Source of the DNA: an uncultured Gammaproteobacteria bacterium
GTDB lineage: Bacteria > Pseudomonadota > Gammaproteobacteria > Steroidobacterales > Steroidobacteraceae
Reading direction: 5' to 3'
NCBI GenBank assembly: GCA_963778185.1
Contig: CAVZTF010000005.1
Location: forward strand, 16,227-80,226
DNA length: 64,000 bases
Numbering within the stretch: position 1 is the first letter of the stretch; each line of letters opens with the position of its first letter. The notes beneath the pieces are model-generated. The model was not told the origin of the DNA, ran no database searches, and was given only the letters and a program-made list of their open reading frames with translations. Shown here one piece after another: positions 28,132 through 34,057 of this stretch. Made by a program: the position numbers and the translations under genes.

Positions 28132-28974
28132 ATGCGTATCAATCGTTTCCCACTCGTCCTCCTCGCCGTCACCGCACTGCTCGGTGCCTGCACTCGCCCG
28201 GCGGAGGACGCGTCCAAGGCGGCCCCCGATGCGAAGGCACCCGCCGCCGCGAAAACCGTAGCCACCGTCAACGGCAAGGTGCTCAGCAGCGAACTCTATG
28301 ACACGTTCATGCAGGCCGTGACCAACAAGCCGGCCGCGGAAGCCACCGACGAGCAGAAGACCCAGTTGCTCGACCAGCTGATCAACATGACGCTGGCTGC
28401 CCAGGTCGCCGAGAAGGAAGGCCTCGCGAAGGACCCGGTGGTGCAGTCGCGCCTCGACCTGCTCCGCACGCAGATCCTCGCGGAGGCCGCGACCGACAAG
28501 TACATCAAGGCCCACCCGGCGTCGGAGAGCGAGCTCAAGGCCGAGTACGACGCGCAGGTGGCGAACATGCCGAAGGAGTACAAGGCGCGCCACATCCTCG
28601 TCGAGAAGAAGGAGACAGCGGAGTCGCTCATTCGCGATCTGCAGGCGGGCGGCGACTTCGCCAAGCTGGCGGCCTCGGAGTCGAAGGACGCCGGCAGCGC
28701 CAAGAACGGCGGTGACCTCGGCTGGTTCGCGCCGCAGACGATGGTGAAGCCCTTTGCCGATGCCGTCGCGACGCTCGAGAAAGGCAAGATCACGCAGCAG
28801 CCGGTGCAGAGTGAGTTCGGCTTCCACGTGATCCAGCTGGAGGACGTGCGCAGCGCCGAGGCCCCGCCGTTCGAGGACGTGAAGCCCCAGGTGCAGATGT
28901 TCGCGCAGCGGAAGAAGCTGCAGGCCTACCTGGACGAGCTTCGCAAGACGGCGAAGATCCAGAAAACGAATTAA
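28132..28974 (+). CDS. Parvulin-type peptidyl-prolyl cis-trans isomerase lipoprotein
   Basis: Lipobox LLGAC. Parvulin domain YKARHILVEKKETAESLIRDLQAGGDFAKLAASESKDAGSAKNGGDLGWF...FGFHVIQLEDV. Confidence 0.88.
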   Translation: MRINRFPLVLLAVTALLGACTRPAEDASKAAPDAKAPAAAKTVATVNGKVLSSELYDTFMQAVTNKPAAEATDEQKTQLLDQLINMTLAAQVAEKEGLAKDPVVQSRLDLLRTQILAEAATDKYIKAHPASESELKAEYDAQVANMPKEYKARHILVEKKETAESLIRDLQAGGDFAKLAASESKDAGSAKNGGDLGWFAPQTMVKPFADAVATLEKGKITQQPVQSEFGFHVIQLEDVRSAEAPPFEDVKPQVQMFAQRKKLQAYLDELRKTAKIQKTN

Positions 28975-28998
28975 CTGTCAAGCCGACATTGTCGGCGG

Positions 28999-29039
28999 AA
29001 CGGCCGGCTTCCCATGCGGGTGGCCGGCCGTTTTCGTTT
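28999..29039 (+). terminator. Rho-independent terminator after the parvulin gene
   Basis: Stem AACGGCCGGC (28999-29008) / GCCGGCCGTT (29023-29032), followed by TTCGTTT. Confidence 0.75.
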
Positions 29040-29260
29040 GGGGCTGCGCAAGCCCCGACGGAGGGGCTGGATCGTGGGCGTCGAACGGTTCGACAGGATG
29101 AGTCCTGCGGCGAAAGGTCGGGCATCGCAGGTCGTGCCGCGAGGCCTTGCCCGCGTTGCAATGAGCGGGTCGACGGGCCGGAAATCAGAATTAATATTGT
29201 TTCTTAGGTATCACTCGTATCTTATTGGTTCTTGTGGATTAAAAAACCACCGTCAACGAA

Positions 29261-29278
29261 CTGTGAAGCAGGTCACAG
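29261..29278. promoter_or_regulatory. CRP/Vfr/Clp-type palindrome cTGTGA-N6-TCACAg
   Basis: Exact match to both TGTGA/TCACA half-sites with a 6-nt spacer, extended to an 18-bp palindrome. It sits inside the AT-rich leader of the island. Confidence 0.4.
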
Positions 29279-29502
29279 TTTCCAGCCCGACAGCCTTGGC
29301 CTGAGCTGCAGCCACGCATCTCGCGACTTGACATAGACGCTGGCCAGCGCGCTCGTCACCCGCCGGACGGGGTTCCTCGCGGGCGCTTTAGACATCCTCG
29401 CCAGCCCACTGAATAGCCGACGTTTTTCGCTCGGCCTCCGTGCCCGCCACTCGCAGACCGCGCCCCGGTTCCCCGACGCCGGGACCCGAATATGTTCAAC
29501 GC

Positions 29503-29530
29503 TTGACCCGTTATGTCCGGCCGATATAGT
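29503..29530 (+). promoter_or_regulatory. Candidate sigma-70 promoter for island gene A
   Basis: TTGACC (29503-29508), a 16-nt spacer, then TATAGT (29525-29530). It is 80 nt upstream of the preferred start codon. Confidence 0.35.
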
Positions 29531-29609
29531 CCGGCCAGGGAGTTAACAATAACCACTGATGTCAGCGGTAATTGCATTACGGATGGGGGAACCCGCGTTC
29601 GGGCTTGAA

Positions 29610-30449
29610 ATGAGCGAGAACTTCAAGAAACCGTTGCTTGCAGCGTGCCGGCACCTGCTGCACCCGCTCGTCCGTATTTTGTTGCGCCACGGCGTTTCCT
29701 ACGGCGAATTTTCGGACTCGGTGCGTGGCGCTTACATCGATATCGCGGCGGCTGAATTGGTGCCTCCCAACCGGCCCCAGACCGACTCGCGCCTCGCGAT
29801 CCTGACCGGCCTGACGAAGCGAGAGGTCACTCGAATTCGCACCGCAGACGCGAATGCGGACGATGCCGTCGGCCTGAATCGTATCGCCCGCGTGCTCCAA
29901 GGATGGAGCCAAGACCCTGAGTATCTCGGGCCGTACGGCCTCCCGCTCGAAGTGCCGTTTGCCGGCGAAGGCAGATCGTTTGAGCAACTGGTGTTGAAGT
30001 ACGCAGGGGACGTTTCTCCCAGAGCCCTGATTGAAGAACTGCTCCGCGTGGATGCCGCGCTGGAAACGGAGGACGGCTACGTCCGCCTGCTCAATCGAAC
30101 CTATCTGCCTACTCCGCTTGACCCAGTCGGCTTAGAGCGACTGGGAAACGTTGTCAATTTCTTCATCGACACTGTCGATAACAACCTGCAGATCAAGCGA
30201 AAGGGCGAAGGCCGCTTTGAACGTTACGCAATAACCATGGAAGGGCTGTCGCCAAGGGACTACGAGGCGTTTGACGCGTTGGTCCGAGAGAAGGCGCAGG
30301 AACTCCTCGAGATCCTGGATGACTGGCTCGGACAGCACGAGATCAAAGGTGGCCACAAGTTGTCACCGAGCGAATCCATCCGCACCGGCGTTGGGATCTT
30401 TCATTTCGTCGACAGGTCTCCGCCGAACCCGGAAGAGACGCTGCAGTAA
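29610..30449 (+). CDS. Uncharacterised protein, island paralogue A (possible HTH-containing regulator)
   Basis: ORF 29559..30449. I prefer the ATG at 29610 (MSENFKKPLLAACRHLLHPLVRILLRHGVSY) because it aligns with the N-terminus of paralogue B. It is collinear with 32519..33433 over its full length. I recognise no known family. Confidence 0.7.
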   Translation: MSENFKKPLLAACRHLLHPLVRILLRHGVSYGEFSDSVRGAYIDIAAAELVPPNRPQTDSRLAILTGLTKREVTRIRTADANADDAVGLNRIARVLQGWSQDPEYLGPYGLPLEVPFAGEGRSFEQLVLKYAGDVSPRALIEELLRVDAALETEDGYVRLLNRTYLPTPLDPVGLERLGNVVNFFIDTVDNNLQIKRKGEGRFERYAITMEGLSPRDYEAFDALVREKAQELLEILDDWLGQHEIKGGHKLSPSESIRTGVGIFHFVDRSPPNPEETLQ

Positions 30450-30512
30450 CCATCAGACTTTTTGCTACTTCCGACTTAGAGCGACGCCAAATTGAAGAAC
30501 AAGGGGACAGCG

Positions 30513-32457
30513 ATGACCGAGAAGCGCCGTTACCAAGGTATTGCACTTGCAGTGTCCTTGGCGCTTGGCACCTTTGCCGCCAGCGCATCCGCAAAGAACG
30601 CGATCGACCGGGACGCTGCCAAGGTTGAGCGCCCCAGCGCCATCATCGGCAGCGATGCGATCATCGGCAGCGACGCGATCATCGGTAGCGACGTCCAGAA
30701 GGTGAAGCGTCCAGTGCCATCATCGGCAGTGACGCGATCATCGGTAGCGACGTCCAGAAGGTGAAGCGTCCCAGTGCCATCATCGGCAGCGACGCCATCA
30801 TCGGCAGCGACGCCATCATCGGTAGCGACGTCCAAAAGGTGAAGCGTCCCAGTGCCATCATCGGCAGCGATGCGATCATCGGCAGTGACGCCATCATTGG
30901 CAGTGACGTCCAGAAGGTGAAGCGTCCCAGCGCCATCATCGGCAGCGATGCGATCATCGGCAGTGACGCGATCATCGGTAGTGACGTCCAGAAGGTGAAG
31001 CGTCCCAGTGCCATCATCGGCAGCGATGCGATCATCGGCAGTGACGCGATCATCGGTAGCGACGTCCAGAAGGTGAAGCGTCCCAGTGCCATCATCGGCA
31101 GCGATGCGATCATCGGCAGTGACGCCATCATTGGCAGTGACGTCCAGAAGGTGAGGCGTCCCAGCGCCATCATCGGCAGCGATGCGATCATCGGCAGTGA
31201 CGCCATCATCGGCAGTGACGTCCAGAAGGTGAGGCGTCCCAGCGCCATCATCGGCAGCGATGCGATCATCGGCAGTGACGCGATCATCGGTAGCGACGTC
31301 CAGAAGGTGAAGCGTCCCAGTGCCATCATCGGTAGCGATGCGATCATCGGCAGTGACGCCATCATCGGTAGCGACGTCCAGAAGGTGAAGCGTCCCAGCG
31401 CCATCATCGGCAGCGATGCGATCATCGGCAGTGACGCCATCATTGGCAGTGACGTCCAGAAGGTGAGGCGTCCCAGCGCCATCATCGGCAGCGATGCGAT
31501 CATCGGCAGTGACGCGATCATCGGTAGCGACGTCCAGAAGGTGAAGCGTCCCAGCGCCATCATCGGCAGCGACGCGATCATCGGCAGTGACGCGATCATC
31601 GGCAGTGACGTCCAGAAGGTGAGGCGTCCCAGCGCCATCATCGGCAGCGATGCGATCATCGGCAGCGATGCGATCATCGGCAGCGATGCGATCATCGGCA
31701 GTGACGCGATCATCGGTAGCGACGTCCAAAAGGTGAAGCGTCCCAGCGCCATCATCGGCAGCGATGCGATCATCGGCAGTGACGCCGATCATCGGTAGCG
31801 ACGTCCAGAAGGTGAAGCGTCCCAGCGCCATCATCGGCAGCGATGCGATCATCGGCAGTGACGCGATCATCGGTAGTGACGTCCAAAAGGTGAAGCGTCC
31901 CAGTGCCATCATCGGCAGCGGCGATCATCGGCAGCGATGCGATCATCGGCAGTGACGCCATCATCGGTAGCGACGCGATCATCGGCAGCGACGCATTCAA
32001 GGGCATTGCAAGCGACGCCTTGGTGCATGGCCCAATTGAACAAGTCAACGTCGCGACCGGCCAGGTAACGATTCTGGGCCAGCTGTATCAAGCAGCACCC
32101 AAGTCGACCGCAGTTGCGAAACTCGCGAGCCAACTCGCCAGTGGCCAGACAGCATTCGCCACGGTGCTCGGACAACCCGACAATCAGGGAAGAAATCGAG
32201 CCAGCAAGTTCTTGCTCGTTTCGCAGTCGTATGTGCCTGGAGCGAGTAAAGTGATGGTCACCGGTCGAGCCACAAACGTTGACGCTAGCAGCGGCACGTT
32301 CACAGTTGGCAAGCTGGTTGTGGACTACACGGCATTGCTGTCTACCCGCGAGGTTAGGGTCATGACAGGCGACGTCGTTGCAGTCGTGGGTCTGCAATCG
32401 GCGCAGGGCGCTCCATTGCAGGCAGTAGGCATTCGATCACCGGCGAATTTGCGATAG
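30513..32457 (+). CDS. Exported tandem-repeat protein (54 x AIIGSD); three frame breaks at 30711, 31786 and 31920
   Basis: AAGGGGA Shine-Dalgarno 7 nt before the ATG. Sec signal MTEKRRYQGIALAVSLALGTFAASASA|K. The repeat array occupies four track ORFs that join collinearly. A 154-aa non-repetitive C-terminal domain ends at the TAG at 32455-32457. Confidence 0.8.
30639..31992 (+). repeat. Coding tandem-repeat array with an 18-bp sub-unit and a 78-bp super-unit
   Basis: 54 copies of GC[G/C]ATCAT[C/T]GG[C/T]AG[C/T]GA[C/T], grouped into 17 blocks separated by 16 copies of GTCCA[G/A]AAGGTGA[A/G]GCGTCCCAG[C/T]. Confidence 0.95.
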
Positions 32458-32518
32458 GGCCGCTGTCGACGTTGGAAATGTGGCCCCTCCGGGCGGCAAG
32501 TCCGCGAGGTCGGTGCAA

Positions 32519-33433
32519 TCAACCTTTCGTGTCGGGTGCGATGCGTTGATCGGCTGAGTCGGCCGTAGACGTCCCATTGCCGTCTTGCATTGTGCCGCCC
32601 TGGACATCGATCAGGGCGCCTTCGTAGTAAAAGACGCCAATCCCGACGCGTGGCCCCTGCTCGCCCGAATCAGTTAATGGCTGCTCGTGCGAGCTTAGCC
32701 AATCATCCATCGTGTGCAGAAAATCGGCCGCGCGAACACGCGCAAGTTGCCTAAACAGAGGCACAGCAGCGGGTATCAAAGTGTCGGAGTAAGCCAGGCG
32801 TTGAATAAACGGGTCCTGCTTAGCTGGGCCAGTGTTGTGAGCCAACCCTTCTAGCACCGGCGCAATGATGTGCGCTAACCCAACGACTAAGTCCTCGCCA
32901 ACATCGGCGGGAATGAAGTAACGGCGCAAAGGGACAAGACTGCCGTCAGACATCTCATCGATCGCTTTTGCAGCAAGCAGTTCAGCTCTTACCGCTCCAG
33001 GGGGAACGTCGCCTCCGGCCAGTCTAACTAGCGCGGTGAACGATTCTGACTCACCTGAAACCGGCAGCGTTCTTGGTCGCCCCTCAGGATCGACAAAGGC
33101 CTGATCGACATGCCAGAGCTGAAGCACGCGAGCCGCGTGACTACTTTGCAGTGAAGCGGCGATGGTCGAATCGTCGGCCGCCGCTGCTGCCAGTAATTGC
33201 TTCTTGATTCGCGCGACCTCTTTGCGTGACAGCCCGGTCCTGATCGCCACCCTAGATGTATTCTTTACACGACCTCGATGGTCCCTGTCTCCAAGCGCCT
33301 CTTGCACGAATGCAAGTTTCGCAACTTCGGAGAACTGCTTGTAACCGATGCCAGATCGCAGTAGCACACGTGCGAGCGGACGTAGGCACGAGCCAAGGGC
33401 GGAAAGCACGCGCACTTGCAGCGCATTGTTCAT
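32519..33433 (-). CDS. Uncharacterised protein, island paralogue B
   Basis: 304 aa. It shares with paralogue A: L.PL.R.LLR.G..Y..FS; SR.AI.TGL.R.EV.RI; ARVLQ.W..D; SF..LV...GDV.P.A...ELL; DDWL..HE; R.G.G.F. It is convergent with the repeat gene. Confidence 0.75.
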   Translation of the reverse strand: MNNALQVRVLSALGSCLRPLARVLLRSGIGYKQFSEVAKLAFVQEALGDRDHRGRVKNTSRVAIRTGLSRKEVARIKKQLLAAAAADDSTIAASLQSSHAARVLQLWHVDQAFVDPEGRPRTLPVSGESESFTALVRLAGGDVPPGAVRAELLAAKAIDEMSDGSLVPLRRYFIPADVGEDLVVGLAHIIAPVLEGLAHNTGPAKQDPFIQRLAYSDTLIPAAVPLFRQLARVRAADFLHTMDDWLSSHEQPLTDSGEQGPRVGIGVFYYEGALIDVQGGTMQDGNGTSTADSADQRIAPDTKG

Positions 33434-33502
33434 TGGTCACCGATCAAAAGTGTGGCGGCACGTTGGCCCGCGGCCAGGCGTCGGCCGTAGAAATTCGGCG
33501 CG

Positions 33503-34057
33503 TCAATCGACCTGAAGGAAGGTCCGTTTGTAATGCTCCAGCTCCTTGATCGACTCGCGGATGTCGTCCAGGGCCAGGTGAGTCGACTGTTTCTGTACTC
33601 CGGCCAGCACGGCGGGCGCCCAGCGCCGGGCGAGTTCCTTGACCGTGCTGACGTCGAGATTTCGGTAGTGAAAGAACTTCTCCAGGTCCGGCATCTCCCG
33701 CGCAAGGAAGCGCCGGTCCTGGCAGATGCTATTGCCGCACATCGGCGACGCGCCGGCCACCACGTGCTGCGCAAGGAATTCCAGCGTCTGGGACTCGGCC
33801 GAGGCGGCGTCCACGGTGCTCGCGCGTACGCGCTCGAGCAGTCCGGACGACCCGTGGGTGGTGCGGTTCCACTGGTCCATTTTCGCCAGCACCGCATCCG
33901 GCTGGTGCACGGCGAGGACCGGCCCCTCGGCCACCAGGTTCAGGGAGGCATCGGTGACGATGGTGGCGATTTCGATGATGTGGTCTCGCAGGGGATCGAG
34001 CCCCGTCATCTCGAGGTCGATCCAGATCAGATTGTCCGCGCTAGCCACCCTGTCCAC
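33503..34057 (-). CDS. orn: Oligoribonuclease
   Basis: [28 protein letters not shown]...[11 protein letters not shown]...[13 protein letters not shown]...[10 protein letters not shown]. Confidence 0.95.

Follow-up and report, generated by a model that had tools for sequence, protein, structure and literature searches.

Two diverged DUF6502 paralogues beside the gene of an exported repeat protein: a candidate autoregulatory module with DUF5666-type partners

Why should two diverged copies of an unrecognised protein bracket a single gene for an exported, highly repetitive protein? The question is raised by a stretch of 64,000 nucleotides (the window) from an uncultured gammaproteobacterium of the family Steroidobacteraceae (assembly GCA_963778185.1, contig CAVZTF010000005.1), in which gene A (29610..30449, forward strand) is followed by a repeat gene (30513..32457, forward strand) and, in convergent orientation, by gene B (32519..33433, reverse strand). 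An inspection made without database searches, here called the sequence-only reading, had taken A and B for paralogues about a third identical from end to end, and the three genes for a compact module outside any described system. The analysis reported here places A and B in the family DUF6502, connects the repeat protein with the DUF5666 proteins and suggests that the two paralogues may regulate the operon that A forms with the repeat gene.

The paralogy of A (279 amino acids) and B (304 amino acids) was borne out by BLASTP, which aligned them with 84/276 identities (30%), 50% positives and E = 3e-35; the two stay collinear from their N-termini as far as the R.G[VI]G.F motif. The resemblance is far above chance level, and the shared motifs that had been picked out by eye recur both in the A/B alignment and in the family alignment. 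The open reading frames had been placed correctly, together with the spacing of 63 nt from the A stop (30449) to the repeat-gene ATG (30513) and of 69 nt from the stop of orn (33503) to the B start (33433). Both proteins match PF20112 (DUF6502, 268 model positions, gathering threshold 27 bits) over its full length, A with 160.7 bits at model positions 4-266 and B with 110.2 bits at positions 1-262. This is the DUF family to which the sequence-only reading had alluded; A and B belong to one uncharacterised family and not to a housekeeping one. For A and B the NCBIfam models matched nothing, and sequence searches of PDB chains with A, B and the family profiles gave no meaningful match, so that no solved homologue is detectable. 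Searches with the module proteins returned zero matches from PADLOC (anti-phage defence) and only noise at E > 0.1 from the PHROGs phage families. No literature on DUF6502 or PF20112 was found. The claim that the module lies outside any described system holds in that no prior account was found and no named regulator family was matched.

The pairing of A with B is not peculiar to the window. A genome scan recovered orthologues of gene A, 70-91% identical, in 28 loci, all of them in metagenome-assembled genomes (MAGs); most are long-read bins labelled 'uncultured Gammaproteobacteria' and several are labelled Steroidobacteraceae. A B-type orthologue is present in each related locus with enough sequence, and B evolves faster than A by far. 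A metagenome scan with a profile built from a 31-sequence B-like subset of the family revealed 80 loci, 31 of which hold two DUF6502 genes. Four of these paired loci are convergent like the window; the others are tandem, with a B-type gene and then an A-type gene behind smc-zipA-ligA. Scoring with A- and B-specific hidden Markov models (HMMs) assigned one A-type and one B-type gene to every paired locus (more than 30, both gene orders). In a neighbour-joining tree the A and B clades are sisters and the single-copy homologues fall outside them; therefore the duplication is older than the split in gene order, and both copies have been kept since. Moreover, the A-type gene stands immediately 5' of the exported repeat gene in all loci with enough downstream sequence, and wherever a tandem locus extends at least 250 bp beyond A, an open reading frame with a signal peptide and an 8-residue repeat starts directly after it. 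Co-transcription of A and the repeat gene, presumed from their spacing, fits this universal adjacency, which tightens to an overlap of 4-7 nt in distant lineages; no terminator was found between the two genes in the window. With almost no exceptions, homologues elsewhere stand next to one another and beside the gene of a repeat protein or DUF5666 protein, as the module reading would have it.

Single-copy relatives hint at the identity of the partner protein. Searches of plasmids with tblastn detected DUF6502 genes in Methylocystis, Microvirga, Rhizobium, Mesorhizobium, Microbulbifer and Acinetobacter, the Mesorhizobium copy being broken by insertion sequence (IS) elements. In Methylocystis and Microbulbifer the lone DUF6502 gene shares 4 nt with the start of a gene annotated by NCBI as 'DUF5666 domain-containing protein', and the unannotated Microvirga and Rhizobium loci likewise hold a pair of DUF6502 and DUF5666-type genes. 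Two metagenomic loci, one in a MAG of the Terriglobales (Acidobacteriota) and one on a separate contig, show a DUF6502-DUF5666(-DUF4382) arrangement with overlaps of 4-7 nt, and a further locus, beside uvrC, has DUF6502 followed by a DUF5666-type lipoprotein. In these partners a signal or lipoprotein peptide comes first, a G-I-G-G-T-G motif follows once or twice, and DUF5666 domains come last. By gene neighbourhood, the DUF6502-DUF5666 partnership recurs in Acidobacteriota, Alphaproteobacteria and Gammaproteobacteria. As to the third gene, a DUF4382 protein follows the pair in two single-copy loci (L119, 3119-4300; L120, 2046-3647), and in the L120 protein DUF5666 is faintly recognisable too; three genes of another composition may have made up the ancestral module.

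The repeat protein of the window appears to belong to the same group. Its gene encodes a Sec signal peptide, an array of AIIGSD hexapeptides and a C-terminal DUF5666-like domain of about 145 residues, and an HMM of that domain locates it beside DUF6502 genes at more than 60 loci. Comparison by hhalign of the window-type domain with the annotated DUF5666 neighbours of single-copy DUF6502 genes gave 80% probability and E = 1.3e-5. The Pfam DUF5666 model (PF18914) scores the window's C-terminal piece at 19.2 bits and two relatives at 16.7 (L082) and 18.8 bits (L099), all below the 27-bit threshold. Since this C-terminal domain aligns to DUF5666 partners that carry one or two motif copies, the AIIGSD array is best read as an amplified short GIGGTG-type motif in front of a diverged DUF5666 domain. 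The titles and abstracts listed for DUF5666 offered nothing informative.

How DUF6502 might act is suggested by the DNA in front of it. Six independent lineages share a palindrome of the TTGGGA-N5/6-TCCCAA type, placed just 5' of the first DUF6502 gene. In tandem A/B loci it reads TTGGGC-N6-TCCCAA, occurs roughly once per locus and sits just 5' of a TTGAC -35 element; in 222 kb, 30 of the 31 sites with a TGGG-N8-CCCA core lie 67-70 nt before the start of the B-type gene. One tandem locus has a second palindrome, TTGGGAATAAATTCCCAT, before A, which gives A and B a site each. Three single-copy loci, namely that of the Terriglobales MAG and those of two metagenome contigs, have TTGGGA-N6-TCCCAA overlapping the -10 region, with its end 2 nt short of the ATG of DUF6502. 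Methylocystis, Microvirga and Microbulbifer have TGGGA-N5-TCCCA, which lies no more than about 100 nt upstream of the gene. The half-sites are symmetric in the single-copy lineages, whereas they are reproducibly asymmetric (TGGGC versus TGGGA) in the A/B lineages. These patterns point to the palindrome as a candidate operator of an autoregulator, because a near-invariant recognition helix is paired with a near-invariant palindrome that is locked to the protein's own promoter. A heterodimer is suggested because the asymmetry appears only where two DUF6502 genes exist, and autorepression because the putative operators of single-copy lineages overlap the -10 region and the start codon.

The predicted structure is consistent with such a role. 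An exhaustive HMM search at E <= 1e-3 placed 5,491 clusters (50% identity) in DUF6502, and the best 150 of these are nearly all stand-alone proteins of 250-310 amino acids. Conservation within the family peaks in SR[VI]AxxTG[LI]xRKEVxRxR, a motif that coincides with the stretch that the sequence-only reading had called helix-turn-helix-like and that is indeed modelled as a helix-turn-helix (HTH). The AlphaFold model, built on a 138-sequence alignment, reached a mean predicted local distance difference test score (pLDDT) of 88.9 and a predicted template modelling score of 0.70; an earlier 8-sequence alignment had given a poor pLDDT of 61. Two N-terminal helices are followed in the model by the HTH (residues 59-81), a helix terminating in the invariant Trp99, a winged-helix-like helix-helix-beta-hairpin (residues 124-160) and two long helices (residues 172-194 and 215-243). 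The best, non-significant Foldseek matches (E >= 0.3, template modelling score <= 0.25) are mostly winged-helix proteins, chiefly transcription regulators, among them IclR/BlcR, Vfr/CRP, MarR/SlyA/RovA and FadR. Sub-threshold Pfam matches among the 138 members were to HTH_29 in eight, to wHTH-PRTase_assc in five and to HTH_36 in three. These results support the HTH-like stretch and do not support membership in a named regulator family. On the model, DUF6502 is proposed to be a cytoplasmic protein of about 280 residues in which the HTH is joined by a further winged-helix-like unit and by a long hairpin of helices.

The gene order around the module clarifies how the convergent bracketing arose. 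In Steroidobacteraceae-type loci with enough sequence, A (forward), the repeat gene (forward) and B (reverse) always stand between a PpiC-type rotamase gene and orn. In the window the former encodes a periplasmic peptidyl-prolyl isomerase (28132..28974, forward strand) that also has a weak SurA-N match in Pfam and is adjacent to the module in both arrangements; the latter encodes an oligoribonuclease (33503..34057, reverse strand), lies upstream of B and matches PF00929 in orthologous loci. A 4.2-Mb contig reads smc-zipA-ligA-B-A-repeat, followed on the opposite strand by ppiC, bolA, yciI and ispZ and after these by yrdC-scpA-scpB. Because the neighbours are the same, the layout of the window can be read as the tandem layout with the A-repeat block inverted in place. 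The bracketing noted by the sequence-only reading is therefore present here and is not defining, given that sister lineages have a B-A-repeat operon: judged by these gene orders, the convergent geometry is lineage-specific and secondary to that operon. The module genes (29500-33500) have a GC content of 0.58-0.60 against 0.69 for the window. Despite this lower GC, a mobile island was rejected, as the same ppiC-bolA-yciI-ispZ-yrdC-scpAB neighbours recur in two deeply diverged lineages; from this synteny, the module is an old chromosomal resident.

Several variants of the order were observed as well. The P0295 contig has a third arrangement, namely ligA, DUF6502, an unannotated gene of 306 amino acids, DUF6502 and then ppiC on the opposite strand. 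Three tandem loci carry an unrelated gene between the B-type and A-type genes (L088, 8068-9714; L094, 4278-5171; L103, 7866-8747), the inserts encoding an SBP_bac_5 solute-binding protein or, on the opposite strand, a GNAT acetyltransferase; co-transcription of A and B is therefore not obligatory. The PpiC-type isomerase beside the module might help to fold the exported protein, and mere synteny would account for its position equally.

What drives the module in the window's own lineage was approached by phylogenetic footprinting of the region upstream of A in 22 loci. Because the palindrome is absent here, the operators proposed for this lineage are conserved sequence blocks only. A sigma-70-like promoter of A (29503..29530, forward strand; TTGACC, 16 nt, TATAGT) agrees with the consensus at 10/12 positions; it is the sole promoter-like site in 28900-33700, and both hexamers are kept in the 22 aligned loci. 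Directly 5' of its -35 hexamer stands the element GAATATGTTCAA (29488..29499, forward strand; consensus form GAATATGTT[GC]AA), which was found with at most one mismatch in 21 related loci at a fixed position and almost nowhere else in these loci of about 17 kb. A second element and candidate operator, GTTAACAATAAC (29542..29553, forward strand), lies between the -10 hexamer and the A start; about 28 related loci have it, once each and in an unchanged position. The two AT-rich blocks, each present a single time in a locus, look like imperfect inverted copies (TGTTGAAC of GAATATGTTCAA, and GTTAACA), and GAATATGTTCAA, from its conservation, would be a binding site. The recognition helix of A has changed to TG[LI]xK[ER]EV in this lineage versus TGLxRKEV elsewhere, and the change coincides with the switch of upstream elements.

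The footprint extends to the start of gene A. A hairpin-like CCCG-N4/5-CGGG block just 5' of the ATG at 29610 is conserved. Translation from a second in-frame ATG, at 29559, would lengthen A by 17 residues (MSAVIALRMGEPAFGLE) to 296 amino acids. This 51-nt extension (29559-29609) has no indels in 21 of the 22 aligned relatives, the exception being L001 with one extra base; because its length is constant across relatives, the start of A (29559 or 29610) is ambiguous. The stretch holds the CCCG-loop-CGGG block and could be coding or a structured 5' leader. Further upstream, the non-coding gap between ppiC and A (28975-29480) is unusually long, about 590 bp, with conserved islands of TT[TG]ACATA about 270 nt upstream and of CGTAA[GC]T just before the GAATATGTT element. 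The spacer between orn and B is short and contained no conserved element, and B is for that reason probably read through from orn. No intrinsic terminator was found between the convergent repeat gene and B, where the predicted fold of the spacer is unremarkable (z = -1.1), and Rfam gave no match in 28800-33700.

The repeat gene itself had been described as a single exported repeat gene between A and B. Its nature and position stand; in this assembly it is not one open reading frame. The ATG at 30513 is preceded by an AAGGGGA ribosome-binding site, and the array is built of tandem copies, 94% identical, of a 78-bp unit that encodes three hexapeptides plus VQKVKRPS. Three indels between 30693 and 31930 move the frame from 0 to 2, back to 0 and then to 1: CCC to CC near 30711, one extra nucleotide near 31786 (GACGCCGATC) and two missing nucleotides near 31920 (GGCAGCGGCGATC). 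The orthologue is a single intact reading frame of 313-1522 amino acids in eight loci (L004, L013, L015, L017, L018, L021, L022 and L026), and in other bins of the same project frameshifts split even A or B; because of both observations, the three indels are probably long-read consensus errors in a tandem array.

The array differs greatly between relatives, from 9 to about 141 IIG-type units (L017, 8840-9778, 313 amino acids; L021, 8862-13427, 1522 amino acids), a range that may partly reflect collapse of repeats in assembly, L017 being a short-read MAG. Unit length is specific to the lineage, with 6-residue AIIGSD units in the window versus 8-residue units elsewhere; those of the tandem loci include GIHGSSxx, SINGSDxx, GIDMGGGTx, AIGGTDxx, AITGGGSx, GINGGDVA and GIDQADVL. 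PF00132 (Hexapep) gave 22.9 and 17.9 bits on two repeat-bearing pieces, below the 27-bit threshold, and PF22178 (gp5 beta-helix) gave 28.1 bits, below its cut-off of 30.9. One relative has an IS3-family element (HTH_Tnp_1 and rve genes; L001/L007, 11675-12790) between the repeat gene and B, and the C-terminal part of its repeat gene is degraded too.

Taken together, these observations suggest a mechanism to which we give somewhat better than even credence: A and B would act together, likely as a heterodimer, as sequence-specific DNA-binding regulators of the A-repeat operon. A and B represent the two ancient DUF6502 subfamilies and would be cytoplasmic winged-helix proteins whose heterodimer binds the promoter of that operon and so controls how much of the repeat protein is made, a Sec-exported protein of DUF5666 type and beta-solenoid-like build. 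This exported protein would be a member of the DUF5666 group in which amplification has turned a short glycine-rich 'I-x-G-x-D/S/T' motif into a long array. One operon comprises, in most lineages, DUF6502 (one gene or two) and the gene of the exported protein, and a palindrome that overlaps or abuts its promoter would serve autoregulation, probably autorepression. In the window's lineage the inverted A-repeat block would run from its own sigma-70 promoter with the flanking elements, and B would be transcribed after orn. We regard paralogy, family membership, the rules of co-occurrence, gene order, the conserved upstream elements and an HTH in a confident model as shown, and infer DNA binding, heterodimerisation, the sign of regulation and the task of the exported protein.

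A number of points weigh against this regulatory proposal. DNA binding by DUF6502 is putative, and winged-helix domains can mediate protein-protein contacts too. Foldseek found no structural match at E < 0.03 in PDB or BFVD and no whole-fold match, and no Pfam or NCBIfam HTH model reached its threshold with A or B. Across the aligned sequences, the recognition helix is unusually invariant for a family of transcription factors. The window has no palindrome of the TTGGGA type; with up to three mismatches allowed, the 64 kb contain eight matches against 10.5 expected. One DUF6502 gene and the Acinetobacter plasmid copy have no DUF5666 neighbour. Lastly, the repeat gene is frame-disrupted here, so that the module could be decaying.

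The alternative that survives best, which still appears unlikely, is that A and B are separate homodimeric regulators, one of them an autoregulator co-transcribed with the repeat gene and the other an antagonist or a second input, produced for instance together with orn in this lineage. In its favour, A and B of the window's lineage belong to separate transcription units whose upstream regions are unrelated, the tandem locus with two palindromes equips each gene separately, the single-copy relatives evidently function alone and B evolves much more quickly than A. However, the rule of exactly one A and one B, kept in more than 30 paired loci and through two gene orders, speaks against it, and the half-site asymmetry of the tandem operators is simpler under a heterodimer.

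A decidedly improbable view holds that DUF6502 is no transcription factor at all and serves instead as a cytoplasmic partner of the exported DUF5666 protein, be it as a pre-export chaperone, as a factor that targets or holds it, or as a sensor for feedback, with winged helices that bind protein. The stop/start overlap with the DUF5666 gene implies co-production, a 'recognition helix' that is nearly invariant across phyla is odd for transcription factors, regulator families gave no significant match in structure or sequence, and the GIGGTG-like motif shared by the partners could be the recognition element. Yet the partners carry an ordinary Sec or lipoprotein signal peptide that should make a dedicated chaperone needless, the locking of the palindrome to the DUF6502 start across phyla is left unexplained, and the combination of an invariant helix with an invariant palindrome is what DNA binding predicts.

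That A and B act on the repeat DNA itself, stabilising the array or driving its expansion and contraction, is highly improbable. Array length is hugely variable in close relatives (313 to 1522 amino acids), and six of the eight three-mismatch matches to the palindrome fall in repeat units, all at one repeated unit junction; however, those weak matches are not above chance, for which reason repeat DNA as an operator carrier was rejected, while exact palindromes are promoter-proximal and the partners of single-copy DUF6502 have two motif copies only and no array. The idea that in this genome the module is in decay or has lost its function, so that the juxtaposition of the genes serves nothing at present, can hardly be upheld, for although it could appeal to the three frame-shifting indels and the low GC of the module, A and B are intact, A is strongly conserved among orthologues (72-91% identical), the repeat gene is intact in eight relatives, and same-project long-read MAGs with frameshifts even in A or B make the indels look like consensus errors. 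None of these rivals accounts for the promoter-locked palindrome as well as autoregulation does.

Carried further, the regulatory proposal leads to a distinctly unlikely extension, in which DUF6502 and the exported DUF5666 protein would constitute an undescribed cross-phylum cell-envelope system: DUF6502, a heterodimer of two ancient paralogues in Steroidobacteraceae-like Gammaproteobacteria, would not only repress its operon; it would also sense the state of its exported partner, for instance by binding the GIGGTG/AIIGSD motif before export, and this partner would form a beta-solenoid fibre that owes its hypervariable length to amplification of the motif. If this were true, sensing by DUF6502 would couple export or envelope status to transcription. 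Apart from that extension, a large family without an assigned function gains a testable proposal, namely a DNA-binding autoregulator with the candidate operator TTGGGA-N5/6-TCCCAA and an exported DUF5666 partner. Two domains of unknown function are joined in one module, and a two-copy motif is connected with its amplification to arrays of up to about 140 units. If the heterodimer is real, the A/B pair of one large gammaproteobacterial group would be a rare heteromeric bacterial transcription factor. No earlier account was found that links DUF6502 with DUF5666, pairs A with B or names the operator; the advance lies in annotation and hypothesis and overturns nothing.

Comparison with known systems sets these proposals in context. 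With PF20112, A and B share the full-length match, the typical size and the stand-alone architecture, and the family description, as far as found, contains neither the A/B split nor the DUF5666 partnership nor the palindromic upstream site. For the exported partner, the C-terminal domain aligns to annotated DUF5666 members (PF18914), although its Pfam score is below the cut-off. The left-handed beta-helix of hexapeptide proteins follows the pattern [LIV]-G-x-x-[STAV]-x, which AIIGSD units fit, with a PF00132 score below the cut-off; the C-terminal beta-helix of phage T4 gp5 consists of octapeptide VxGxxxxx units, which the 8-residue units of sister lineages resemble, again with a score (PF22178) below the cut-off. 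Like the autoregulated repressors of the MarR/SlyA, IclR and GntR families, the module combines a modelled HTH and wing-like hairpin with a palindrome at its own promoter and with a putative target gene that is probably co-transcribed. Unlike MarR, DUF6502 is about twice the size and has two winged-helix-like units plus a helical hairpin as well as two obligatorily co-occurring paralogues, and unlike all three families it shows neither membership by sequence model nor a significant whole-protein fold match. Heteromeric pairs of DNA-binding paralogues are known in bacteria from IHF alpha/beta and HU alpha/beta. Their fold is unrelated and the A/B heterodimer is a proposal drawn from pairing and site asymmetry; the likeness lies in two diverged paralogues that are kept together and in a site that is asymmetric in the A/B lineages versus symmetric in the single-copy ones.

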